This document shows positions 41,618-58,451 of a stretch of 64,000 nt of DNA, piece after piece. Source of the stretch: Candidatus Cloacimonadota bacterium (lineage in GTDB: Bacteria; Cloacimonadota; Cloacimonadia; G963667145); assembly GCA_963667255.1 (NCBI GenBank), contig OY762940.1, forward strand, positions 736,001 through 800,000, given 5' to 3'. The first letter of the stretch is position 1. Every line of letters begins with the position of its first letter. A model generated the notes under the pieces. The model saw nothing but the letters and a program-made list of their open reading frames with translations. It made no database searches and had not been told where the DNA came from. The translations under genes and the position numbers were made by a program.

Positions 41618-41797
41618 ATGAAAAATATTAAATTCAAAAATTGCGTAACCTTGGAAGAGATAACCAAAGGGTTTTTACTGTATAGGCAACTTTGCAGTTG
41701 GGGTAAAAAGCCTGAGGGGAACTTCGAGTTCTTGGGCGAGACTTTTGAATTGAAAATGAATCGGACGGAAATAATAATAAAAAGGATTAATTTGTGA
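41618..41797 (+). CDS. Small hypothetical protein
   Basis: 59-aa ORF whose stop overlaps the next start (GTGA); no recognisable motif. Confidence 0.35.
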   Translation: MKNIKFKNCVTLEEITKGFLLYRQLCSWGKKPEGNFEFLGETFELKMNRTEIIIKRINL

Positions 41798-43905
41798 CTT
41801 ATCTGTGGCAAGACATTAAACTGGAAATTAAGAACAACCTTTGGCAGGTGTTATCACTGATTTTCTTGTCGTTTGCGTTCGTTTATTCTCTGAGAATTTT
41901 TGGAGTGGATTGTATTTCGTTTGCCAAAAATCAAGAATTGTTATTCGCCAAAAGCTCTGCCGGCAGTTTGTATAAAAGCAATTTCTTTTCGGGAATACCT
42001 GCTTTATTTAGTCCTCCGATTATAGATAATTTGTTCTTCGATTCCATTTTGGTTTTTCCTTTTGTTTCTTTGGCGGCAGGCTCTGTGGGCGTTTATTTTT
42101 TCTTGCACTATGGCAAAGGTGTATCAAGCTGGATTGCCGTGATAGCTTCGTCAGTTTGGTTGGTGTTGCCCTTTTGGCAATATCTGGACGCCTCACAAGA
42201 TTTTGCTTTGCTCAGATATTTTGCGATTTTGCCATGGGTAATTTTTGCAGTGCGTTATTTGCGGGAAAAGCAGTCGTTGTGGGCATTTTCTTGCGTGAGT
42301 TTTTCTTTTGTGTTGTTGTTTAGGGTTTGCGACCCTCAAGCATTTTGGTTCTTTTTGGTTTTTTTCTTTTTGGCACTAATACTGTTTTTCTTGGAAAATC
42401 TTTTGCAAAGGAAAGCGTTGGATTATTCCAAATTTTTGCTTCTGATTGTTACCGCTTTTTTGTTTGCCGTTTTTGCAGCATCACAGCCGCTGTTCAGCTT
42501 TTTTAAGCTCTTTGGGAATTTTATTTACTCCAACGACTTCACTGTCTCTTTCGATGTGTTTACCGGCTTTTTTGATGCAAACTCTTTTTTGATGATGGGA
42601 GTTATCTTTTTGGTGATAGCAGGTTTTGGGTTTAGGGGGAACATATTGCTTGTAATCTCTTTTTTGTCGCTTCTCATTTTGCCGTTTTGCACAGATTTTT
42701 TCCCTGGGGCTTGGATAGTAAAAAATCCTTTTCTGTTGTTTGGATTTAGCCTTACTTTTGCAGTGGTTTTGTTCGGCATAGGTTTGGACAGAATATTGAA
42801 AATGAAGTTGAGCCTATTGGAAAAAGGACGACACTATTTTGTTTTTCTGCTTCTTTCGGTTTTTTTACTTTCGATTTTCATAGTGTGGAGTGGGAATTTT
42901 AGCTTCCGCTCATTTTTCTTGTTGTTGCAAATCTTGTCATTGTTTCTATTTGTCTTGGTTTTGTCCTTCCGCCGTAGATTTGATAATCATTTTGCTTTTC
43001 TCTTTCTGATTTTTCTTTTGATTTTCCCGATGTTCGCCATCAGCGGATTTCGTCATAGGTTGCATTATGCTCCGGTCAATAACGACTATTACAATTCGTT
43101 GGATAGACTGGTGGCTGACAATGCTGGTGATTACAGGATTTACCCGCTGGAGAGATTGTTTACCGACAATCGTCTTGGGCAAAAATTTGAGGTAATAGGT
43201 GGTTCTGCCCGCATCATTCAGCGGAATTTCAGACAGCTTTTGCAAAATTGCTTGGAGTTTAAGCTTAGCAGTGATTTGCCGATAAATTGGAATGTTATCG
43301 ATATGTTGGCTGTGAAGTATGTTTTGCGGGAAAACGCTTCGCTCAAGGTCGATGAACTTGCTTATTTGGACTATGATGTGAAGACGAAAATCTCCGTGTA
43401 TGAGAACAAAAATTATCGGGGGAAATTGTGGTTTGTGGACAAGGTTGTCTCATTGCAAAATCCCGAATATGTATTCAAGGCGATTAATTCGGCGGATTTT
43501 GACCCTTTTCAAGAAGCGATAGTTGACAGGGATTTTTCTTTTGATGTTGCCATACCCGAAAAATACAGTGCCAAAATTATCGAGAATGCAAACGACAAAA
43601 TCCAATTGAGAATATTCACGGATGTGCCGTCTTTCTTAGTTTTTAGCAACAATTTTTCTGATGATTGGTATGCATTTGATGATACGGGAGGAATTAAGAT
43701 TTTTAGGGTAAACTATTTTCTGCAAGGGTTTTACCTCACTCCCGGGTTGCATAATATCTCCTTGGAATACATACCGGTTTTGGAGCGAGTTACGCAGGTG
43801 ATTTCTTTTATTTTCTTGGTGTTGCAGATTGTGCTGTTGATTGCCGGCTACTACTTGTATGTAAAAAATAATTATGCCAATAAAACAATTTATATCTTGA
43901 AATGA
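41794..43905 (+). CDS. YfhO-like multi-pass membrane protein (putative GT-C glycosyltransferase)
   Basis: FSGIP near the N-terminus, many TM helices, DMLAVKYV, LVFS......W.A...G..I.RVNY.LQG..L.PG.H.I.LEY.P and a C-terminal TM. Confidence 0.7.
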   Translation: MTYLWQDIKLEIKNNLWQVLSLIFLSFAFVYSLRIFGVDCISFAKNQELLFAKSSAGSLYKSNFFSGIPALFSPPIIDNLFFDSILVFPFVSLAAGSVGVYFFLHYGKGVSSWIAVIASSVWLVLPFWQYLDASQDFALLRYFAILPWVIFAVRYLREKQSLWAFSCVSFSFVLLFRVCDPQAFWFFLVFFFLALILFFLENLLQRKALDYSKFLLLIVTAFLFAVFAASQPLFSFFKLFGNFIYSNDFTVSFDVFTGFFDANSFLMMGVIFLVIAGFGFRGNILLVISFLSLLILPFCTDFFPGAWIVKNPFLLFGFSLTFAVVLFGIGLDRILKMKLSLLEKGRHYFVFLLLSVFLLSIFIVWSGNFSFRSFFLLLQILSLFLFVLVLSFRRRFDNHFAFLFLIFLLIFPMFAISGFRHRLHYAPVNNDYYNSLDRLVADNAGDYRIYPLERLFTDNRLGQKFEVIGGSARIIQRNFRQLLQNCLEFKLSSDLPINWNVIDMLAVKYVLRENASLKVDELAYLDYDVKTKISVYENKNYRGKLWFVDKVVSLQNPEYVFKAINSADFDPFQEAIVDRDFSFDVAIPEKYSAKIIENANDKIQLRIFTDVPSFLVFSNNFSDDWYAFDDTGGIKIFRVNYFLQGFYLTPGLHNISLEYIPVLERVTQVISFIFLVLQIVLLIAGYYLYVKNNYANKTIYILK

Positions 43906-47068: not shown

Positions 47069-48334
47069 ATGAGACTCGGTTTTTGTCTGTTGTTTGTGGG
47101 GATTTTTTTATCCTCTGTCGTAATGGCACAGGAGCAGATAAATAAAGAAGAACTTTTGGAGATTGTAGAGCAGGTGAATTGGAAAGGGAACTCGAATAGA
47201 GATAATGTGCAGGGTGCTAATCCTTTTGACCCTATGCAAGTTATGTATCCCTTAGATTCGCAAAATCTTATTAAAGAGAAGAAAAAGGAGGAACGGCTGA
47301 ATATCGTAAATACTTACGAAAGCGGAGTTCCCGCTGATTTTTCTTTTGACAATCCGGCTTCTGTAATAGACAGTTTGCACAAGGGTTACGATTTTTTGTG
47401 GGGGGATTTGATTTACAAATCTCGTGATGGGAACAGTAGCGACAAAAATTTTGAGTTTTTCTACAAACAGGGAATTATTAAATATTCCAAAAAATCTTGG
47501 GAAATTAGTTCTCAAGTGATTTTTGACAATCGGGTTTCCAACTTTGATGAGAAATTATACGATTTTGTGAATTCTAGAAATTCGAGTGAAAAGGAAATTA
47601 ATAACTCTAACTTTGGAATTGGGAGCAAAAATTTTTCTTATAACAAGACGAGTTTTTCCTACGCTTTTTTGTCCAAGATGAGGGAATATCCTGTGAAATT
47701 TGGGTTGAAGGTTAATTTGCTGACTCCGATTTCTTGTATGGTAGCTGACAAAAAAAACGAAACTTTGGGGACAGCAGATTATTATATAGCTAATATTTTT
47801 AGTGATTTTCAGCCGAGTTTCGGACTGGGATTTGGATTTGGTGCACAAGTGTCCGAATTGCCGGGGAAATGGATTTTTGAAAATGGCAGATTTGATTTGA
47901 GTGTTGACGATTTGAATAGCAAAATAGAGTATAAATCTCCGCAGAAGTCTATGCTTTATTGTAACGATTCTTTGAAAAAAGTTTATGTTGTTGAAGTGGA
48001 TAACGACGGCAAAACGATAGAGTATGATTTGGAGCCAACTTGCAAAGCGATGGTCGCTTATGCGATGCCTTCGTTGGGCAGAATGAGTGCCGCCATTAAG
48101 TTTGTGGAAGACGAGACAGCTTTTGATGAAGGCGTTTCGCTTGGTTACGATTATGGCTTGAATGGGAACAAAGATATAGCTGTATGGTTGGGTAAAGGTG
48201 AGGACTATTTTGCTTATGGTTCGTATTCCATATTGGGCAGAAGATTTATAAAGGCTCAAGGTGGAGTTTATTGGGATGGTGACGGTTTTGACGGGTTTCA
48301 GTTGAGTTTGCAATTTTTTAGATTTTTGGACTGA
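47069..48334 (+). CDS. Putative outer-membrane beta-barrel protein (DUF5723-like), paralog A
   Basis: Signal peptide; GLGFGFG, LSVDDL and GVSLGYDY motifs shared with 50451 and 55164. Confidence 0.55.
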   Translation: MRLGFCLLFVGIFLSSVVMAQEQINKEELLEIVEQVNWKGNSNRDNVQGANPFDPMQVMYPLDSQNLIKEKKKEERLNIVNTYESGVPADFSFDNPASVIDSLHKGYDFLWGDLIYKSRDGNSSDKNFEFFYKQGIIKYSKKSWEISSQVIFDNRVSNFDEKLYDFVNSRNSSEKEINNSNFGIGSKNFSYNKTSFSYAFLSKMREYPVKFGLKVNLLTPISCMVADKKNETLGTADYYIANIFSDFQPSFGLGFGFGAQVSELPGKWIFENGRFDLSVDDLNSKIEYKSPQKSMLYCNDSLKKVYVVEVDNDGKTIEYDLEPTCKAMVAYAMPSLGRMSAAIKFVEDETAFDEGVSLGYDYGLNGNKDIAVWLGKGEDYFAYGSYSILGRRFIKAQGGVYWDGDGFDGFQLSLQFFRFLD

Positions 48335-48352
48335 TACAAAAAGGGGAAAATT

Positions 48353-50458
48353 ATGAGAAGAGAGAATAAGGCGAACGAGATGTTGAAATTTTGCAAGTAT
48401 TTTTTAGCGAGTATTGCAAAATGGAAATGCCTTCTTCTGCCTTTATTACTTCTCTTGGGTTGTGAAGCGTATAAGATGCCGACCGACCTCGGTATGCCTA
48501 CATGGACAACCTCTTTGTATCTCAAAATAGCAGATAAATGTTACGATATTGCCAAAGAGATTTCTGGTAAAGATTCCATTTTTGTTTTGGAAGAGGGCAA
48601 GGTTACGCTTAAAAAAAACTTGGATGCCAAAGAAATTGCTTTCAACTCTCCTAAAATTGAACAGACGAATAGTTCTAAACAAGAGATAGGGTATTTTTCT
48701 GTAAGTAATTTGGGGAACTGCAATATAGGTTTCGCATCTTCTATTGTATTAGAGAGTGGGGAAACTAGATCCTTACCTCAGAGTATTCAGCTCAATTTAA
48801 ATACGACGGGGTTTACAAAGGCGGAGTTAGCAGATGCTGTTGTTTCACTACAGTGCAAAAATTCTTCTGGAGAAGTTGTTTCTGGTATTGATTATAGAGA
48901 TCTTAAGCTGAATGTGTGCGATTGGGACGGAAATAGTAAAAGTTTAAATTTTATCCTTGAAGGCAAGGTAAGTGCTTCTGTATCAGATACAACAACTTGG
49001 TTTACCCTTAAGAGTAGTGGAGCTTCTTTGAGTGGAAATTTTGTTGCAACAGCCAATGTAACATTTGATACTCTTGTTTTAAAAATAATCCCAAATAGTA
49101 AGAATTGCATTTTGGCCTCTAAGGTGGAATTACCTGCCAATAGCAATAGCTTTTCTGGGAGCAAATTTTCTGGCAATGTTAAGGTTGGCTTGGGAGAAGA
49201 TTACGAGCTTTATCAGGCGGAGATTGCCACCGGCAAACTTATATTTTCTAAAAAAAATGATATTTCCGGAATAGATTTGACCAAAATAGTTATCTCATGT
49301 AACGGATTGATAAAGGGCAACGACACTCTTAGTGATTCCGTTTTTTATAGTTCCAATCCGACTGACTCTATAATAGACTTGGATGGATATCTTTTGGGAA
49401 CTGGGGAGAAACTTGATAGTTTGGAGTTTACTTATGAAATTGGTTATGCTGCCAAATCTAGCTCAGAAATTTCTGTTAAAAATACTGATGCCGTTGAGAT
49501 TGGTGCAAAAATTCAGGCTTCGTTCGCATGGGTAAAGGCTAAGGTAAAGAATGCTTCGGCTTTTGCAATGGACAGCACTAACGAGAAAATTGATTTTGGA
49601 GATGACTTGCCTGCGTTCAAAACTGCAAAAGGTGCTGATACTACCTTGTCTTTAGCGAAAAATACAAAACTTACTTTGGGTATTTCTTTGCCTGCTACGG
49701 TGGAAAGTGGTGATGCTAATCTGATGCAATGCAATTTGACTTTGATTGCTTATAAGGGCGGAGTAGCTAAAGAGACTATAGATACAACTAAAGATATTTC
49801 TGTGGGAACTACCAAGGGCTCTGAAAGCACTATTGTTGTTGATTTGCTGGAGGAGTTGATTAATTGTTCTCCTGATTCTATCACTGTTAAGATTGTTCCC
49901 AAGATTGCTACTAATAATGGAGGAATTTTCAAATTTTATTGTGGCGACTCTATAAAAACCAATATAAAACTCACAAGTAACCTTATTTTTGGAGAAGTGT
50001 CGCAAATTGTATATTATCAAGTAGAAGATAATCCTCAAGAGCAAGATTGTCCTTTGACTAAAGCACAGGCTGAGTCGGCTAAGGAGATAGTTGCTTACTT
50101 AGAATATAAGAATAACACAAATACTTCGCTTGGAGCGGAACTGCTAATCAGTAAAGATTCTGCATATTTAAGGCAAAATATTTACACCAATATTAGTGAT
50201 GAGAAGCTACGAAGAATTGATTTAAAAGATTTGGAATATAACGAAACCGACACTTCTCAAATCAAGCCCAGTGAAATTTCTATGGATACTCAGGATTTGT
50301 TGGTGCTTGCGGGTAAGGATAAGGAGAAAGTTTACACTTTCCTCAAAGTAAAAGTGATAGGAACAGGAAAGGAATTAAAAGGCAAATTTGATGTGAAAGT
50401 CTATGTGGGGATGAAAGTTACGGTAGATGAAAAATTGACGGAGGGTAACAATGATTAA
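48353..50458 (+). CDS. Large beta-rich lipoprotein, paralog 1 (start may be 48380)
   Basis: Lipobox LLG-C; DLGMP.....LKI.D..YDIA.E shared with 52954. Confidence 0.65.
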   Translation: MRRENKANEMLKFCKYFLASIAKWKCLLLPLLLLLGCEAYKMPTDLGMPTWTTSLYLKIADKCYDIAKEISGKDSIFVLEEGKVTLKKNLDAKEIAFNSPKIEQTNSSKQEIGYFSVSNLGNCNIGFASSIVLESGETRSLPQSIQLNLNTTGFTKAELADAVVSLQCKNSSGEVVSGIDYRDLKLNVCDWDGNSKSLNFILEGKVSASVSDTTTWFTLKSSGASLSGNFVATANVTFDTLVLKIIPNSKNCILASKVELPANSNSFSGSKFSGNVKVGLGEDYELYQAEIATGKLIFSKKNDISGIDLTKIVISCNGLIKGNDTLSDSVFYSSNPTDSIIDLDGYLLGTGEKLDSLEFTYEIGYAAKSSSEISVKNTDAVEIGAKIQASFAWVKAKVKNASAFAMDSTNEKIDFGDDLPAFKTAKGADTTLSLAKNTKLTLGISLPATVESGDANLMQCNLTLIAYKGGVAKETIDTTKDISVGTTKGSESTIVVDLLEELINCSPDSITVKIVPKIATNNGGIFKFYCGDSIKTNIKLTSNLIFGEVSQIVYYQVEDNPQEQDCPLTKAQAESAKEIVAYLEYKNNTNTSLGAELLISKDSAYLRQNIYTNISDEKLRRIDLKDLEYNETDTSQIKPSEISMDTQDLLVLAGKDKEKVYTFLKVKVIGTGKELKGKFDVKVYVGMKVTVDEKLTEGNND

Positions 50459-52007
50459 GAAAATTTTATTTTTGCTTTTGCTTGCTCCTTCAATTTTGTT
50501 TGCTGTGGATGATTTGCCATTATTGGATTTTGCTGAGGCGGAAAACACTGTAGAACCTAAAGCCATTGAGCAACCTCTTGAGAATGAGGTAGAACCGTTG
50601 CCCTTGCTTGATTTTCCTGAAGATAAGAATGACACGGCAGAGCAGTCTGATGAGCAAAATTCAAAGGAGTTAGATTCTTTGCCATTATTGGACTTTGTTG
50701 AACCTCCAGATTCCGTTACTCTTGATACGATTGAGGACTTCCCACTTTTAGTTTTTGATACGATAGCAGATTCTGTTGATAATGAGAGATTTCTCAAAAA
50801 AGTGGAGGATTTCAAAAACGACCCGTCTGCTTCGTCTGAGCAGAAGACAAGATTGCTGGAGTATAAAGCCTACGGTTCTTTCAACGAGAACCCCGCAACT
50901 ATTGCTTGTAGGGATATTTTCTATTTGGACATACCGATAGGATTTGCGATTTCTTTCAGAAATTCCAACCTCAGTTGGAACGAATTTGTAACGATGTTCC
51001 AAAAAAATACCGTTCTCTCTGCATCTGATAAAGGGAAGATTTACGGAGATGATTGGGATGTTTCCTTGGGAATGACCAAGTCTGTGTTCGGGATTGGCTA
51101 CGACAATTACCAGTTTGCTTCCAATATCTTCCTCAATGCCAAGATTAAGAATTTGGGAACTCAGTGGCTCAAGTTTGTTTTGGAAGGTAATAGCAAAGAC
51201 AAAATGGTAATTGAGGGGAGTTCCGGAGAGGGTTCGGAAGTAATCGGTTATGTGAAAAATTCTCTATCCTATTCTATCCCTTCTGCGTTCACTTTCTTTG
51301 AAAGAGATTTTTATTTTGGTTTGAATTTGAATATCTATAATGCGGTTGGATATGCTAAAGTGGAAAATTCAAAGCAGACGGCGGATTTGGAAAATGGCAC
51401 GGCAGTTGTGTCATACGATTACCTATATTCCAAATTTAATGATTTCAAAGTGAACAGCTCTATGGGGTTTGGATTTGGTGTTGTTGTGGATGCGTTGCCC
51501 GATATATATTTCCTCAGAGAAGGACACGCTTACCTCAGTGTTGATGACCTTTTTGCCAAGTTGAAATTTTCCGATTTGGAGAAAACCTCTTACAGCAAAA
51601 AGATTACTTATTCTTATAGTGATAGTAAAAGTAATGACACTGTGACGACTGACACAACTTATGCTTTGGATAATTATACCGTAAAATTAGACCCCGAATA
51701 CAGTATCGGTGTGAGTTACAGCCTTTTTGATGAGACTAAGTTCGGGTCAATGCGTTTTGTGACCAAATATCGCAAAGCTGAGTTTGCTTACGACAGAGGG
51801 TTTAGTCTTGGATTTGATTATTATCCGTTCAAATACTTACCGTTCAACTTCAGATACGGGATAGATAGCGACTCATATTTTTCCTTCGTAATTGGCTTGG
51901 ATTGGTATATGGATTTTGCTCTTCGCTTTGTCAATTACGGGCATACATTCGGTGGTGGAGCCAAAGGTTTCACTATTGGACTGGATTTGTTGAGGATAAA
52001 ATTTTGA
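50451..52007 (+). CDS. Putative outer-membrane beta-barrel protein (DUF5723-like), paralog B, with N-terminal acidic repeats
   Basis: Signal peptide, NPA motif, LEGN, GFGFG, LSVDDLF and C-terminal IKF. Confidence 0.6.
   Translation: MIKKILFLLLLAPSILFAVDDLPLLDFAEAENTVEPKAIEQPLENEVEPLPLLDFPEDKNDTAEQSDEQNSKELDSLPLLDFVEPPDSVTLDTIEDFPLLVFDTIADSVDNERFLKKVEDFKNDPSASSEQKTRLLEYKAYGSFNENPATIACRDIFYLDIPIGFAISFRNSNLSWNEFVTMFQKNTVLSASDKGKIYGDDWDVSLGMTKSVFGIGYDNYQFASNIFLNAKIKNLGTQWLKFVLEGNSKDKMVIEGSSGEGSEVIGYVKNSLSYSIPSAFTFFERDFYFGLNLNIYNAVGYAKVENSKQTADLENGTAVVSYDYLYSKFNDFKVNSSMGFGFGVVVDALPDIYFLREGHAYLSVDDLFAKLKFSDLEKTSYSKKITYSYSDSKSNDTVTTDTTYALDNYTVKLDPEYSIGVSYSLFDETKFGSMRFVTKYRKAEFAYDRGFSLGFDYYPFKYLPFNFRYGIDSDSYFSFVIGLDWYMDFALRFVNYGHTFGGGAKGFTIGLDLLRIKF
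50511..50760 (+). repeat. Four degenerate (L/F)PLL(D/V)F peptide repeats in an acidic linker
   Basis: DDLPLLDFAE, EPLPLLDFPE, DSLPLLDFVE and EDFPLLVFDT. Confidence 0.8.
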
Positions 52008-52957
52008 AAGATTTTATTAAGCAAGAGCTAAAAAAAGAGGCTGATTCCATTTTGCAAGTTGCAGAGCGGATAGATGACAAAATCGAAAAAGTTATTGATG
52101 TTTTGTTCGCTTGCAAAGGGAAAGTCGTTTTGGTGGGAATAGGCAAGACTGGACACATCGCACGCAAGATTTCCGCTACTTTTGCCTCAACCGGCACTTC
52201 TTCCGTGTTTTTGCATGCAGCCGAGGGGTTGCACGGAGATTTGGGGATTGTGGACAAAAAAGATGTTGTAATTGCCATCTCTTACAGCGGGGGAAGTAGC
52301 GAGCTTTTGTCTGTGTTGCCGTATTTTAAGTTTATGGGTGTGCCGATTATCGCTTTTACGGGGAAACTGGATTCCGCCTTGGCAAAGGCGGCCGATTTTG
52401 TGGTTGATTGCGGAGTTGATGAGAGCACCGAGCAATTTGGGTTAGTCCCGACTGCTAGCACTACAGTTTGTTTGGCGATGGGCGATGCCATAGCTGTGGC
52501 TTTGCTCAAGAGGAAAAATTTTTCTGTGGATGATTTTGCCAAGTTTCACCCGGGAGGAACCATTGGAAAGAGGATTTTCCTCAAAGTGGAAGACTTGATG
52601 TGCAAAAATTCTCCAGTAGTTAGAGTTGGCACGGATTTGCAAGAGGCTGTTTTGACAATGAGTTCTGGCAAACTTGGATGTGTAGTTGTATTGGATAGCG
52701 ACGAAAATTTGGCAGGCATCTTTACGGATGGAGATTTGCGACGAGAATTACAGAGAAGAGATTTTAAGGATTGTTATCATCTAAAAATAGAAGACTTAAT
52801 GACCAGTGATTTCAGGAAATGCGAGCCGAATTGGTTGGCGGTGGATGCTTTGAGGCTGATGGAAAACAGCAAAATAATGATGTTACCCGTGGTGACAGGC
52901 GGAAAATTAAGAGGGATTTTGCATATGCACGCCCTTTTGGAGGCAGGAGTAGTATGA
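52004..52957 (+). CDS. kdsD: Arabinose-5-phosphate isomerase (KpsF/GutQ family, SIS + CBS)
   Basis: GIGKTGHIARK, EGLHGDLG, PTASTT...MGDA, FHPGG and FTDGDLRR; TTG 52004 overlaps the upstream stop. Confidence 0.93.
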   Translation: MKDFIKQELKKEADSILQVAERIDDKIEKVIDVLFACKGKVVLVGIGKTGHIARKISATFASTGTSSVFLHAAEGLHGDLGIVDKKDVVIAISYSGGSSELLSVLPYFKFMGVPIIAFTGKLDSALAKAADFVVDCGVDESTEQFGLVPTASTTVCLAMGDAIAVALLKRKNFSVDDFAKFHPGGTIGKRIFLKVEDLMCKNSPVVRVGTDLQEAVLTMSSGKLGCVVVLDSDENLAGIFTDGDLRRELQRRDFKDCYHLKIEDLMTSDFRKCEPNWLAVDALRLMENSKIMMLPVVTGGKLRGILHMHALLEAGVV

Positions 52958-55161
52958 GAAAATTAAAAATATTTTCAATAGTAGTTACTATATTTTTATT
53001 TGCTTGCGATGTCAATTTCAGCGACCTCGGAGTCCCGAATAACACAGCTTCTTATACACTCAAGATTGTTGATGAGCAATACGATATTGCTACGGAGATG
53101 CTGAAGTATGCGAATGGAATATCCAAAAACGATTCGGGGGCACTTTGCATAGATACGACCATCGTTTACAGCAAAACCAGTGGTATTGCTTTTAATAAGA
53201 CCTCTTTTGGTTCTGTGACTCTCTGGAGAAAACCTCCATACTATCTCACAGGCATTGCTGCTAAGAGTTTTAGTTTTTCTCCCAATGAGCTTTCCGGTAA
53301 TTTTTCTACACTTCCTACAACAGGTTCGGGGACATTCTCTTTTGGTGCTTTTACCTTTTCTCAAAGCAAAAATAATAATACAAATTCTTGGAATCCTTAT
53401 ACTGAGTTTAAATATGCCATTGTAACAGATGCTAAATTAACGGTTACTGCTACCAATAATTTAGGATTCAAGGTAACCGGCTTAAAGGTAACTGTTAGTG
53501 ACTCTTCCGGCACTGCTTTAAAAACTTTTTCTCTTGATAGTGTCTCCAATGGTTCTTCTGCTTCTGCTTCAGAAACTATTTCTTCTTTGACATATACTCA
53601 ATTTATCAATGTCAAGGTGGAAGGCTCGGTCGGTGAATATAATAAATTGCTAGTGACCACCAGCAACAAACTGACAGTGGATATTTCGTTTGCTACATTG
53701 ACCGATGCGACAACTGGGAAGGCGTATCAAATAAAATCCAGCGATTATTATGGTCCTCCCCAGGCTGATACTGTTATAGCTAATTGGAAACAAGTTCTTA
53801 CCATTGATAAAGATAAGGATGGCAGTAGCGATTTTGATATTTACAATTTTAATTCTACTCCTAGTATTATAAATAATCTTAAGATAGGTTTTGTAACTTA
53901 TTGTAGTGACAATGTATATTCGTCTTTTGCTTTTCCCGAGATTCATACTTCGTCCACAAGGAATGATACGCTAACCAGCAGTTATCAAATTTCTAAGATA
54001 ACAGGAAGTAGCAGTAGTGCTACTTATAGCAACTCTCTTCCGCTTGCAGGCAGATATTTTGGTGATACCTATTCTGCAAATGCCAATTTATTTGATACAG
54101 TTAATGTTAACGCTACATTTATTTTTCCACAATCGAGCGAATTTGTTCGTGTTTTAGACCAAAAAATTGTTGTTAGTCTCACTTTGGATAGTTTGGCTGC
54201 CGAGCAGATGATTTGTAAAGTCAAAGAAGATGTTGTCTATGGAGGGATTAGCGGGACTATTCCTGTGAGTCTTAGTCGCTTTTATGTAACTGATAGAAAT
54301 GGAAACGAAGTTTCGGAGATTAATTTATTGGATTCTTCCACAATCTCTTACTCTATGAATAGAATTATTAAAACTCAAAACAGTAATACTGTTAACAATT
54401 TTATCCGATTAAAAACAACTATGAGTAGTAGCAGAAATTCAAATAGTCGCACATATAATGACAGTGCATCATTTGGGATTACACCGTCTTTGTTGATAAA
54501 TTATGCAGGCTCTTTGCCAAACGATAATCTATTTTTAAATTTGCTGAAAATTTTGCCTGAAAATTTTTCTTATTCAGTTAGTCCGACTCTAAAGGCTTCT
54601 GATACCGTTATTGTTATAAATGCTTCTACTAATTTAGCGGTAAATCTTGCAATCAAAGCTCCAATTAGGTTTACTACAAGTGGCGATACGCTCATTTTTG
54701 TATTACGCAATGATTACGGAAATGGATTTAGAGGAATGTATAAACAATTTACTTCAGCACAATTGAACAATAGTGTTTATAAAAATTATATTAGTGGTAA
54801 TTTGGTTTTGAATTATAAAAATACATCTAATATGACACTTGGAGCAAAAATTATTATTTCCACGGATTCCAGTGTGTTATACAACAATAATATTTTGACT
54901 ACGGCAAATACTACTACAGTTGGCAACAGCGGATATCCTTCATATATAGCTCGTGTAATTAGTCTTGGCAATCTTTCACCCAATACTCCTTCTGGGACAG
55001 TTTCCGCCAGTTTGAGCAAAAATGATTTGGTTCCATTTTTGAAAGATACCTGTTATGTAGGAGTAAAAATACCTATTAATAGTTCTTCTGCCAGTTTTTC
55101 CGGTGAGTTGGACTTGGTTGGCAAAATTGAATTTGATTATAATAATTTTGGAGACCTTTAG
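52954..55161 (+). CDS. Large Ser/Thr/Asn-rich lipoprotein, paralog 2
   Basis: ATG 52954 overlaps the kdsD stop; MRKLK + hydrophobic core + lipobox LFA-C. Confidence 0.7.
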   Translation: MRKLKIFSIVVTIFLFACDVNFSDLGVPNNTASYTLKIVDEQYDIATEMLKYANGISKNDSGALCIDTTIVYSKTSGIAFNKTSFGSVTLWRKPPYYLTGIAAKSFSFSPNELSGNFSTLPTTGSGTFSFGAFTFSQSKNNNTNSWNPYTEFKYAIVTDAKLTVTATNNLGFKVTGLKVTVSDSSGTALKTFSLDSVSNGSSASASETISSLTYTQFINVKVEGSVGEYNKLLVTTSNKLTVDISFATLTDATTGKAYQIKSSDYYGPPQADTVIANWKQVLTIDKDKDGSSDFDIYNFNSTPSIINNLKIGFVTYCSDNVYSSFAFPEIHTSSTRNDTLTSSYQISKITGSSSSATYSNSLPLAGRYFGDTYSANANLFDTVNVNATFIFPQSSEFVRVLDQKIVVSLTLDSLAAEQMICKVKEDVVYGGISGTIPVSLSRFYVTDRNGNEVSEINLLDSSTISYSMNRIIKTQNSNTVNNFIRLKTTMSSSRNSNSRTYNDSASFGITPSLLINYAGSLPNDNLFLNLLKILPENFSYSVSPTLKASDTVIVINASTNLAVNLAIKAPIRFTTSGDTLIFVLRNDYGNGFRGMYKQFTSAQLNNSVYKNYISGNLVLNYKNTSNMTLGAKIIISTDSSVLYNNNILTTANTTTVGNSGYPSYIARVISLGNLSPNTPSGTVSASLSKNDLVPFLKDTCYVGVKIPINSSSASFSGELDLVGKIEFDYNNFGDL

Positions 55162-55163
55162 CG

Positions 55164-56372
55164 GTGAATTCTAAAAGATATTTTTTCTTTTTTTGTTTTC
55201 TATTTATAATTTCAAATTTATCTGCGACTTTGTTGTTCTTCCCTGAAAATCAAGCTAATTATGCTGAAAGGGAGTATTCGGAGGTTAGATTTCCCGGACT
55301 AACTTTTAACCTTGGCTATGAAAATTCAGCTTTCGATTACGATGGATTTGTAAGAATCTTGAAAATGTGCAAAAACGATTACACCTTGACTCAGAGCGAT
55401 AAAGATTTTTTGAAAAAAAACGATTTCAGCATTAAATCTTATAACTCTATTAATGTCTTAAATTTTGGCAGATGGAACTGGAATTTTCGCTCCGATATTT
55501 TAGCTTACGGGAATTTATCAAACATGAGTTCCGAATTTTTGATTTTTATGCTTGAGGGAAATAGGGACTCTACTTCTATGGAAAGATTGAAAAATCTAAA
55601 TCCCGGAAGTGGTTCAGAATCAACTATTTTTATGAAAAGCACTTTTACATATTCTAAACAAGAGCCAATTTACATCGATAATCTATTTGACTTTGATTTT
55701 CTGGATTTTGCCTTTTCTGTTGGTTTTAATGTCAATGTCTATAATCCAATTCAATATGCTAGATTAGAAACGGAAAAATTTGCAATTACTGATTCCAGTG
55801 TTGATATCTCTTTCACCAAATACTATTCTGATGGTGATGAATTTTTTACGGGATTTGGTCTTGGGTTGGGAGTGGGTTTCAAGATGGATATTGAGGATGG
55901 ATGGCTTTATTTTTCTGTTGATGACCTCTTTGGGTCTATGAGTTATCAAAAAGTTGTGGAGCAAGGTGTAAGAATAAATCAAAAAACTACAAGTAGTATT
56001 GATATAGATAGTTTTGTTAACAATGGAGATAAGGTTTATAATTACGATTATACCATTAAATTTGACCCTACTGTCGTTTTTGGTATAGAAAGATATTTGA
56101 CAAGTGACTTTAGTGTTATGGTTAAATTGAAAAGTTGTGATTATGAACTTGATGACGGAGTTTCCGTAGGATTTAACTATATGCCGAGCAAGCATTGGCC
56201 TATGCAGTTTGTGTTGGGCAATGGTATAGAGAAAGAGATGTTTTACAAGGTAAAGGCAGGGATGATTTTCAGTCGTTTTGAGGCTGATATTTCTTTATAT
56301 TTGTTTGATGGATTTTTTACTTCCGCCAAGGGATATGGCATAGAAGCGGATTTGTTTAAGATTAAATTTTAA
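55164..56372 (+). CDS. Putative outer-membrane beta-barrel protein (DUF5723-like), paralog C
   Basis: Signal peptide, LEGN, GFGLGLG, FSVDDLF and C-terminal AKGYGIEADLFKIKF. Confidence 0.6.
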   Translation: MNSKRYFFFFCFLFIISNLSATLLFFPENQANYAEREYSEVRFPGLTFNLGYENSAFDYDGFVRILKMCKNDYTLTQSDKDFLKKNDFSIKSYNSINVLNFGRWNWNFRSDILAYGNLSNMSSEFLIFMLEGNRDSTSMERLKNLNPGSGSESTIFMKSTFTYSKQEPIYIDNLFDFDFLDFAFSVGFNVNVYNPIQYARLETEKFAITDSSVDISFTKYYSDGDEFFTGFGLGLGVGFKMDIEDGWLYFSVDDLFGSMSYQKVVEQGVRINQKTTSSIDIDSFVNNGDKVYNYDYTIKFDPTVVFGIERYLTSDFSVMVKLKSCDYELDDGVSVGFNYMPSKHWPMQFVLGNGIEKEMFYKVKAGMIFSRFEADISLYLFDGFFTSAKGYGIEADLFKIKF

Positions 56373-56382
56373 GAGATAGTAA

Positions 56383-56964
56383 ATGGATAATGTTTTAAAA
56401 TCGTATAAAGACAGTTTAGGATTTTTGCAAAATTTTATAGAGGATGAGAGGAATTTGCAGAAGACCAAACTTGTTGCGGAGAGCTTGGCAAAAACTTTGT
56501 CTTTAGGTGGCAAAGCTATCTCTTGTGGCAACGGTGGAAGTATGTGTGATGCTATGCATTTTGCCGAAGAGTTTACCGGTAGATTTCACAAAGACCGTCT
56601 TGCTTTACCGGCGATAGCTCTTTCCGACCCGTCTTATCTCACTTGTGTCGGCAACGATTACGGGTTCGAGCAGATTTTTGCCAGAGGAGTAGCTGCTTAC
56701 GGACAAAAAGGTGATGTCTTAATAGCGATTTCCACCAGTGGCAATTCCGCAAATGTTCTGGAAGCGGTGAAGGAAGCCAAAAAGAGAGAGATTTATTGCG
56801 TAGGATTTTTGGGCAAAGACGGTGGCAAACTTTTGCAAGAGTGCGATGAATATTTTCTTGTTCCCGCATCAACTTCCGATAGAGTGCAGGAAGTTCACAT
56901 GATAATTTTGCACATAATCATCCAAGAAGTGGAGAGAATTTTATTTCCTCAAAATTATGTTTAA
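56383..56964 (+). CDS. gmhA: D-sedoheptulose 7-phosphate isomerase
   Basis: CGNGGSMCDAMHFAEE, NDYG, ISTSGNS.N and DRVQEVH. Confidence 0.95.
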   Translation: MDNVLKSYKDSLGFLQNFIEDERNLQKTKLVAESLAKTLSLGGKAISCGNGGSMCDAMHFAEEFTGRFHKDRLALPAIALSDPSYLTCVGNDYGFEQIFARGVAAYGQKGDVLIAISTSGNSANVLEAVKEAKKREIYCVGFLGKDGGKLLQECDEYFLVPASTSDRVQEVHMIILHIIIQEVERILFPQNYV

Positions 56965-58415: not shown

Positions 58416-58451
58416 GGCTACTCAGCTTTTGTTGAGTAGCTTTTGTTTTTT
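58416..58451 (+). terminator. Rho-independent terminator of the tRNA operon
   Basis: GCTACTCAGC-TTTT-GTTGAGTAGC followed by a T-run. Confidence 0.85.

Follow-up and report, generated by a model that had tools for sequence, protein, structure and literature searches.

The window analysed here is a 64,000-nucleotide stretch of a Candidatus Cloacimonadota genome (class Cloacimonadia; GenBank assembly GCA_963667255.1, contig OY762940.1, positions 736,001 to 800,000 of the forward strand), and the locus of interest within it is a run of seven co-directional genes encoding three predicted outer-membrane β-barrels, two large lipoproteins and two sugar-phosphate isomerases. With moderate confidence, we read the locus as two lipoprotein-then-barrel pairs together with a partnerless barrel, each predicted FadL-fold barrel of a pair likely being the outer-membrane dock for its lipoprotein, a predicted stalk of nested β-sandwich domains that is probably positioned on the outer side of the cell. 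The genes and their parts, in window coordinates, are as follows.

47069–48334, + strand: barA, a 421-amino-acid FadL/DUF5723-like barrel, divergent, with no lipoprotein partner and without most of loop L1 and the GN motif of loop L2
48353–50458, + strand: lip1, the partner gene of barB, encoding a 701-amino-acid lipoprotein whose size class has four domains, with the lipobox Cys codon at 48461
50451–52007, + strand: barB, a 518-amino-acid barrel whose N-terminus has an acidic extension (about 125 amino acids) ahead of the NPA motif
52004–52957, + strand: kdsD-like arabinose-5-phosphate isomerase gene (SIS and CBS domains), with a TTG start
52954–55161, + strand: lip2, a 735-amino-acid lipoprotein (Cys18 at 53005) with four predicted nested β-sandwich domains, the base resembling BDI_1231 (4H3W)
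53254–53697, + strand: innermost inserted domain of lip2 and its putative tip (mature residues 84–231), the most variable portion of the protein
55164–56372, + strand: barC, a 402-amino-acid barrel with 14 predicted strands and a predicted FadL fold, NQA replacing NPA, a short plug and a C-terminal Phe
55323–55424, + strand: loop L1 of barC (mature residues 33–66), helical, putatively extracellular, a candidate docking surface
55527–55613, + strand: loop L2 of barC (mature residues 101–129) with a conserved GN, a candidate docking surface
56383–56964, + strand: gmhA-like sedoheptulose-7-phosphate isomerase gene, which adjoins the barrel pair in the genus of the window only

All seven open reading frames (ORFs) were found again in the order, on the strand and with the junctions described by an earlier reading made from the sequence alone: gaps of 18 nt separate barA from lip1 and of 10 nt barC from gmhA, and the remaining genes overlap or abut.

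The barrels

The three barrels are paralogues well above chance, as the sequence-only reading had claimed, with blastp E values within the seven-protein set of 4e-30 for barB and barC, 8e-20 for barA and barB, and 1e-10 for barA and barC. The motifs that it had named as common to them align across all three, and those named for the lipoproteins are present in both lip1 and lip2. In a FastTree phylogeny of 89 barrels, barA, barB, barC and a further family (f6) form one clade with support 1.0, within which the branches are long, that of barA being the longest in the tree, and the branching order is not settled (supports 0.80, 0.63 and 0.20).

The structure was modelled for barC, and barA and barB were placed by sequence. 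The model (pLDDT 90.6, pTM 0.88, 93-row alignment) has 14 strands, counted from DSSP; strands 2–7 are long, and a helical loop follows each of strands 1 and 3. Its top VIA matches are FadL (Z 21.2, rmsd 4.8, 293 residues aligned), TodX (Z 20.5) and 9n2d_B (Z 19.8), a chain of the β-barrel assembly machinery (BAM) that we take, from our own reading of the entry, to be BamG. The top seven rows are all FadL-family chains, including those of BAM and of the type IX secretion system (T9SS), and span Z 21.2–17.9, the next row standing at 14.8; Foldseek agrees, with FadL, TodX and FadL-like BAM and T9SS chains at the top of its ranking. The C-terminal Phe cited in the sequence-only reading as an assembly signature is found in barC, but barA ends FFRFLD.

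An NPA motif lies ahead of strand 1 in barA and barB, replaced by NQA in barC, and is conserved in 151 paired barrels at 99% (N), 93% (P) and 94% (A). The plug, taken from the signal h-region to this motif, comprises 9–15 residues in five genus barC proteins and 20 sister-family barrels, compared with 24–35 residues, about 20 more than in barC, in 37 other barrels of the class; a short plug was also scored in four of 54 barrels from other phyla. Where the plug would be, barA and barB carry unrelated N-terminal extensions. That of barB (window 50500–50850) contains four LPLLDF-like repeats, and comparable acidic repeats begin barB in four relatives of the genus (G001–G004).

Pfam and NCBIfam scans of the five envelope proteins gave no match over cut-off, PF18990 (DUF5723) had no match in any of the three window barrels, and a PDB sequence search returned nothing significant, with weak TbuX, TodX and CymD rows at E 0.01–0.16. 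The homology to DUF5723 is drawn through relatives: a 15-row barrel profile reaches 58 representatives, 17 of the 32 that were scanned pass the PF18990 cut-off, and 13 of the 51 members of the barrel alignment match it at E ≤ 0.05. Named relatives belong to Marinimicrobia, WOR-3, Calditrichota and Gemmatimonadota. The early guess of FadL/DUF5723-like β-barrels is borne out by the FadL fold of the barC model, and this is the predicted nature of the window barrels.

The lipoproteins

Pairwise similarity between lip1 and lip2 is low (blastp E about 1e-4), and a profile of 68 lipoprotein relatives, genus orthologues included, matches both (E 4e-93 and 2e-76, respectively). The lip2 model (pLDDT 85, pTM 0.64, 37-row alignment) is all-β. 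Its best VIA match is BDI_1231 (4H3W; Z 13.2, rmsd 5.1, 288/312 aligned over model positions 15–713), followed by a row at 9.3, and Foldseek gives the same structure a probability of 1.0 and a TM score of 0.43 by target. Additional β-sandwich matches within lip2 at 60–401 and 84–231, at background level (Z 6.6–9.3), suggest domains inserted within domains, the limits of which were placed from secondary structure and match ranges. The nearest named Atlas cluster is DUF4621 (0.92, 14% of members), the family to which 4H3W presumably belongs. Scans with PF15414, the DUF4621 model, found no match in lip1 or lip2; this model is narrow, passing its cut-off in 0 of 401 genomes of the phylum Bacteroidota.

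The lengths of the lipoproteins cluster at about 180, 370–390, 500–560, 660–760, 820, 960–1016, 1156 and 1280 amino acids. The group of about 180 amino acids aligns solely to lip2 589–714 (probability 62%, E 8e-5) and that of about 380 to lip2 1–38 and 395–717 (97.8%), so that the short homologues map to the base of lip2, which we count in favour of a base-anchored stalk. Identity also falls from base to tip in five of five lip2 orthologues, from 81, 65, 59, 55 and 60% at the base to 48, 33, 34, 34 and 34%, respectively, at the tip. In one other genome (G142; L050:4374–5984, + strand), the lipoprotein gene is broken into ORFs of 418 and 106 amino acids, through a frameshift or a sequencing error.

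Conservation and expansion of the pair

Lipoprotein–barrel adjacency, which the sequence-only reading proposed to check in other genomes, is very strongly conserved. A barrel profile, built partly from the genomes searched, matches 172 of the 177 class genomes that are at least 85% complete, although weak second matches may be other FadL-like genes. In the class outside the genus, a sample of 61 loci from 59 genomes, chosen by score and spread over families, shows, for 60 of 61 barrels, a family lipoprotein immediately upstream, and the single miss lies at a contig start; in other phyla (60 loci), this holds for 57 of 62 barrels, the misses being four contig ends and one lipobox ORF under threshold. 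PF18990 matches 137 of 201 sampled Bacteroidota genomes, and an upstream lipoprotein is present in 33 of 38 distinct DUF5723 loci of this phylum (the top 30 and eight lower-scoring ones), ten forms of 180 amino acids being counted as lipoproteins by a lipobox and a weak or no single-sequence score.

The locus is a lineage-specific expansion of this widespread pair, with three barrels versus the usual one; a profile search of its own 1.59-Mb genome finds three barrels and two lipoproteins in total, all within the window. Two loci outside the class (L122 and L133) hold independent tandem arrays of the form lipoprotein–barrel–lipoprotein–barrel.

The usual context of the pair in the class is fabG–fabF–rnc–radical SAM (14 of 20 loci), where the radical SAM label comes from a family scan and the fab and rnc labels are our assumption from the sequences; the neighbours differ again in other phyla and in Bacteroidota loci. 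Most relatives carry the pair at the far end of a plsX–fabD–fabG–fabF–rnc block, and in the genome of the window, a PF03349 FadL-family barrel (G000:C1:108686–109966, − strand; L088) lies directly upstream of that block. At most class loci, a conserved membrane protein of about 665 amino acids ending RRRWGLL-like flanks the barrel (for example L049:3952–5943; weak Pfam matches to DUF4350 and GATase1-like). In family f3, large proteins end 3–13 nt upstream of lipoproteins of 990–1280 amino acids (L074:1–1713, L079:42–2669, L084:149–2794, L092:1–522), with C-termini that we take to be T9SS-like. At L090:3585–7079 (− strand), a family barrel downstream of an 821-amino-acid lipoprotein forms an in-frame fusion with about 740 amino acids of tetratricopeptide repeat (TPR)-like repeats (1165 amino acids in all), a layout that recalls Slam and may be an assembly artefact.

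The open-access literature searched contained no functional study of the barrel–lipoprotein pair, its mentions of DUF5723 being incidental, nothing relevant on BDI_1231, DUF4621 or 4H3W, and no relevant paper on the envelope that named Cloacimonadota. No DUF5723 function is given in the portions available of PMC12937337, bioRxiv 2025.01.03.631275, PMC12336276 and PMC6994654; in its available portion, the second of these, on Brachyspira, gives 16 strands for a protein labelled DUF5723 in UniProt, which differs from the 14 strands of the barC model.

Partner loss and loop decay

The sequence-only reading had assigned each barrel its own lipoprotein. This stands for lip1–barB and lip2–barC, but the gene upstream of barA is thrS, with no lipoprotein gene there, and the locus therefore comprises two pairs and one partnerless barrel. 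Among five genus relatives, G001 and G002 have the full gene order and alone possess barA, G003 and G004 lack barA and lip1 and retain barB, and G005 has lip2–barC alone; a genome-wide search did not find lip1 in G003–G005. barC is retained in all six genus genomes.

These losses leave a trace in the loops. When positions invariant in three paired barB proteins were scored in the two orphans of G003 and G004, 22 of 34 L1/L2 positions were lost, as against 50 of 169 outside these loops (Fisher p 0.0002). The paired barC of the same two genomes, used as a control, had lost 8 of 38 loop positions versus 28 of 181 elsewhere (p 0.47). Likewise, barA retains one or two of six family-wide loop residues, versus five of six in the six paired genus barrels compared. 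Loop decay after partner loss indirectly supports a physical partnership between cognate barrel and lipoprotein.

Complex prediction was run on an orthologous pair from another genome (G144; 388 and 524 residues, 68-row alignments) and weakly supports such a partnership, with a score of 0.52 versus 0.00 for the best control, runs agreeing in at least 95% of contacts and partner pLDDT of at least 84. Of 157 solved complexes used for calibration, 116 come up to the mark, as do 2 of 215 mismatches; scores of 0.60 or below account for just 18 of the 157 solved complexes and for both mismatches.

A proposed docked lipoprotein stalk

In the arrangement that we favour, the predicted 14-stranded FadL-fold barrel would be the outer-membrane dock of its lipoprotein, which would form a stalk of nested β-sandwich domains, likely outside the cell. 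The basal domain, made of the N-terminal strand and the C-terminal 125 amino acids, may bind loops L1 and L2 and the long strands 2–7, much as BamH sits on BamG; the additional nested domains would determine the reach of the stalk, and the variable tip may bind an outside ligand or surface, for adhesion or capture. Surface exposure, basal docking and tip ligand binding are what we infer from the observed gene order, length ladder, identity gradient and loop decay together with the two predicted folds.

Several points weigh against this arrangement. The orphan test amounts to two lineage events, one for barA and one for barB in sister genomes, and its alignment positions are mutually dependent. 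barA has diverged overall, keeping 13–16 of 31 non-loop residues versus 17–18; 10 of 151 paired barrels likewise keep at most two of the six loop residues; and five partnerless Bacteroidota matches are mixed, with 2, 3, 5, 5 and 3 of six. barB persists without lip1, so that a barrel can be of use by itself or have lip2 as a common partner. The complex prediction scored weakly, yielded no interface, comes from an orthologous pair standing in for those of the window, and may reflect likeness to BamG–BamH. The sidedness of L1 and L2 is presumed from the general rule for barrels. A near-core gene, finally, fits housekeeping better than a typical adhesin.

Alternative functions

The alternative that survives best, although unlikely, is a lidded or receptor-assisted channel, in which the barrel would transport a hydrophobic molecule such as a fatty acid or lipid by FadL-style lateral opening and the lipoprotein would capture the substrate or cap the pore. 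It draws on the FadL and TodX fold matches, the conserved NPA motif, the plug shortened by about 20 residues in barC and the sister family, and the fabF–rnc–radical SAM genes that the pair follows in the class. Fatty-acid genes, however, are neighbours neither in the genus nor among the flanking genes shown for other phyla, the genome has its separate PF03349 gene beside plsX, and a partner whose domains number anywhere from one to about eight and whose tip varies would make a poor lid. The FadL fold itself does not imply transport, since non-transporting members, BamG and PorV, are described in the available text of PMC12578637.

Distinctly unlikely is a dedicated exporter that would flip its cognate lipoprotein to the surface, following a Slam or type XI-like logic built on a FadL fold, and hold it there afterwards. 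Slam proteins combine an N-terminal TPR domain with a barrel and export a cognate lipoprotein; general family scans of the window barrels gave no TPR match, so that this periplasmic domain appears to be missing from them, and a 14-stranded lumen would admit an unfolded chain only. The near-invariant one-to-one gene pairing, extending to the tandem duplicates outside the class, and loop decay following partner loss would nevertheless fit client-specific use, and surface-lipoprotein export in Bacteroidota is left unsettled in the available text of PMC12611786 and PMC12578637.

That the barrels are BamG or PorV/PorP-like T9SS shuttle components is very unlikely. FadL-like chains of BAM and the T9SS do match barC at Z 17.9–19.8, and upstream proteins in some families end in what we take to be T9SS-like tails. 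On the BAM side, however, the BamG model NF053685 has no match among the window barrels, its best match in the genome being another gene (C1:1326640–1327782, E 2e-18, itself under cut-off); the BamH profiles NF053686/7 and PF14092 have none among the window lipoproteins; and hhalign comparison of five lipoprotein size groups with 12 DUF4270 proteins stayed at the level of reversed controls. Two genomes (G194 and G204) encode a DUF4270/BamH gene as well as the barrel–lipoprotein pair. With no profile match, a separate BamG-like gene and both systems in one genome, membership of BamG/BamH fails. On the T9SS side, the translocon SprA was found in 0 of 6 genus genomes (1.5–1.6 Mb, 97–99% complete) and in all 20 of the other genomes of the class that were searched, the relatives serving as a positive control, and PF19572, a test for the shuttle, has no match in the genome of the window. 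Judging by gene content, the T9SS seems to have been lost from the genus; that the pair has nonetheless been retained and multiplied there makes a T9SS role unlikely. The best BamG-like gene (G000:C1:1326559–1327911, − strand; L089, L220) has a 561-amino-acid lipoprotein-like ORF with TPT repeats upstream.

Neighbouring genes and the lipopolysaccharide question

The kdsD and gmhA products match SIS/CBS and KdsD/GmhA models, slightly below equivalog cut-offs, and in six of six genus genomes, their genes flank lip2–barC with translational overlaps. They adjoin the pair at the five genus loci counted and at 0 of 121 belonging to other genera or other phyla, the latter count covering flanks of about 6 kb, many shortened by contig ends. 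The best kdsA and rfaE matches of the genome lie at C1:1.27 Mb and 1.56 Mb, hundreds of kilobases from the locus at 0.79 Mb. One long co-directional run encloses all seven genes together with thrS and holB, which overlap or abut equally tightly, and co-transcription of the pair with kdsD and gmhA is likely, as it equally is with thrS and holB. Scans for promoters (43 versus 35.1 ± 5.0) and terminators (14 versus 10.3 ± 2.9) were near shuffle level. The best terminator-like hairpin (11 pairs, consensus match only) lies 3′ of holB at window 58416–58441 (+ strand) and fits a single long thrS-to-holB transcript. Window 41794–43905 (+ strand) encodes a 703-amino-acid multi-pass membrane protein kept across all genus genomes, with no Pfam or NCBIfam match over cut-off and a presumed likeness to YfhO-type glycosyltransferases.

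Because kdsD and gmhA flank the pair only in this genus, a lipopolysaccharide-assembly or envelope system functionally tied to 3-deoxy-d-manno-oct-2-ulosonic acid (Kdo) and heptose synthesis, which the sequence-only reading had proposed, is scarcely credible, and the two genes are probably accidental neighbours brought together by genome rearrangement in a streamlined lineage.

Significance

Complexes of a barrel and a surface lipoprotein define the envelope of the Fibrobacterota–Chlorobiota–Bacteroidota (FCB) group. The two-gene outer-membrane module described here is near-core in its class and widespread in Bacteroidota, and the locus offers testable handles in the form of candidate docking loops, exposed by natural partner loss, and a base-to-tip domain map; the minimal 180-amino-acid version found in Bacteroidota may suit genetics. 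A bolder version, which we rate as quite unlikely, would make DUF5723 barrels and their lipoproteins an undescribed FCB-wide export-and-display machine, its reach tuned in steps of about 150 amino acids and its expansion here replacing the lost T9SS. The barrel would flip its own lipoprotein without the T9SS or BamG/H and then anchor a telescoping stalk of one to eight domains.

Comparison with known systems

The window barrels share with DUF5723 (PF18990) the NPA and loop motifs, the relatives linked to them by profile pass its cut-off, and its Bacteroidota members share the upstream lipoprotein; they differ in lacking a PF18990 match of their own, in the plug of barC, about 20 residues shorter, and in the number of copies, three. 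lip2 shares the two-domain fold of DUF4621/BDI_1231, its best structural match, which spans its N- and C-terminal parts, but lip1 and lip2 have two more nested domains and no PF15414 sequence match. With the FadL, TodX and TbuX channels, the barrels have the fold and the NPA motif in common; identity is 8–10%, and the window family has a near-obligate lipoprotein neighbour, a shortened plug and helical L1 and L2.

The S-layer pair BT1926–BT1927 resembles the locus in pairing a barrel with a surface lipoprotein, and PopA in its FadL-like plug. BT1926 is 8-stranded and PopA 16-stranded according to the available text of PMC12228718, and the BT1926 family and PopA superfamily were ruled out because these strand numbers differ from the 14 of the barC model. 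A lead to PG2105/PG2106 of P. gingivalis was dropped, as these could not be tied to DUF5723.

The closest parallel in design is BamG–BamH. As described in the available text of PMC12611786 and PMC12578637, BamG is a 14-stranded FadL-family barrel carrying the surface lipoprotein BamH; according to that of the former, strands 3–7 of BamG form the pillar on which BamH docks, and the barrel-proximal end of BamH has the fold of a carbohydrate-binding module that recognises chondroitin sulfate. The 14 FadL-fold strands, several of them long, and the proposed carriage of a lipoprotein are common to both systems; BamG has an extended N-terminal tail and barC a shortened one. A module of this kind (8wab, Z 6.7, rmsd 3.7, 129 aligned) matches the lip2 base weakly, within background, and BamH is not among the 50 VIA rows listed for lip2, with which a shared fold remains compatible. 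The LPS angle does not hold, and what sets this locus apart is its expansion, the test provided by orphaned barrels, a shortened plug and independence from the T9SS. By analogy, the best working model is a pair built like BamG–BamH that belongs to neither family.

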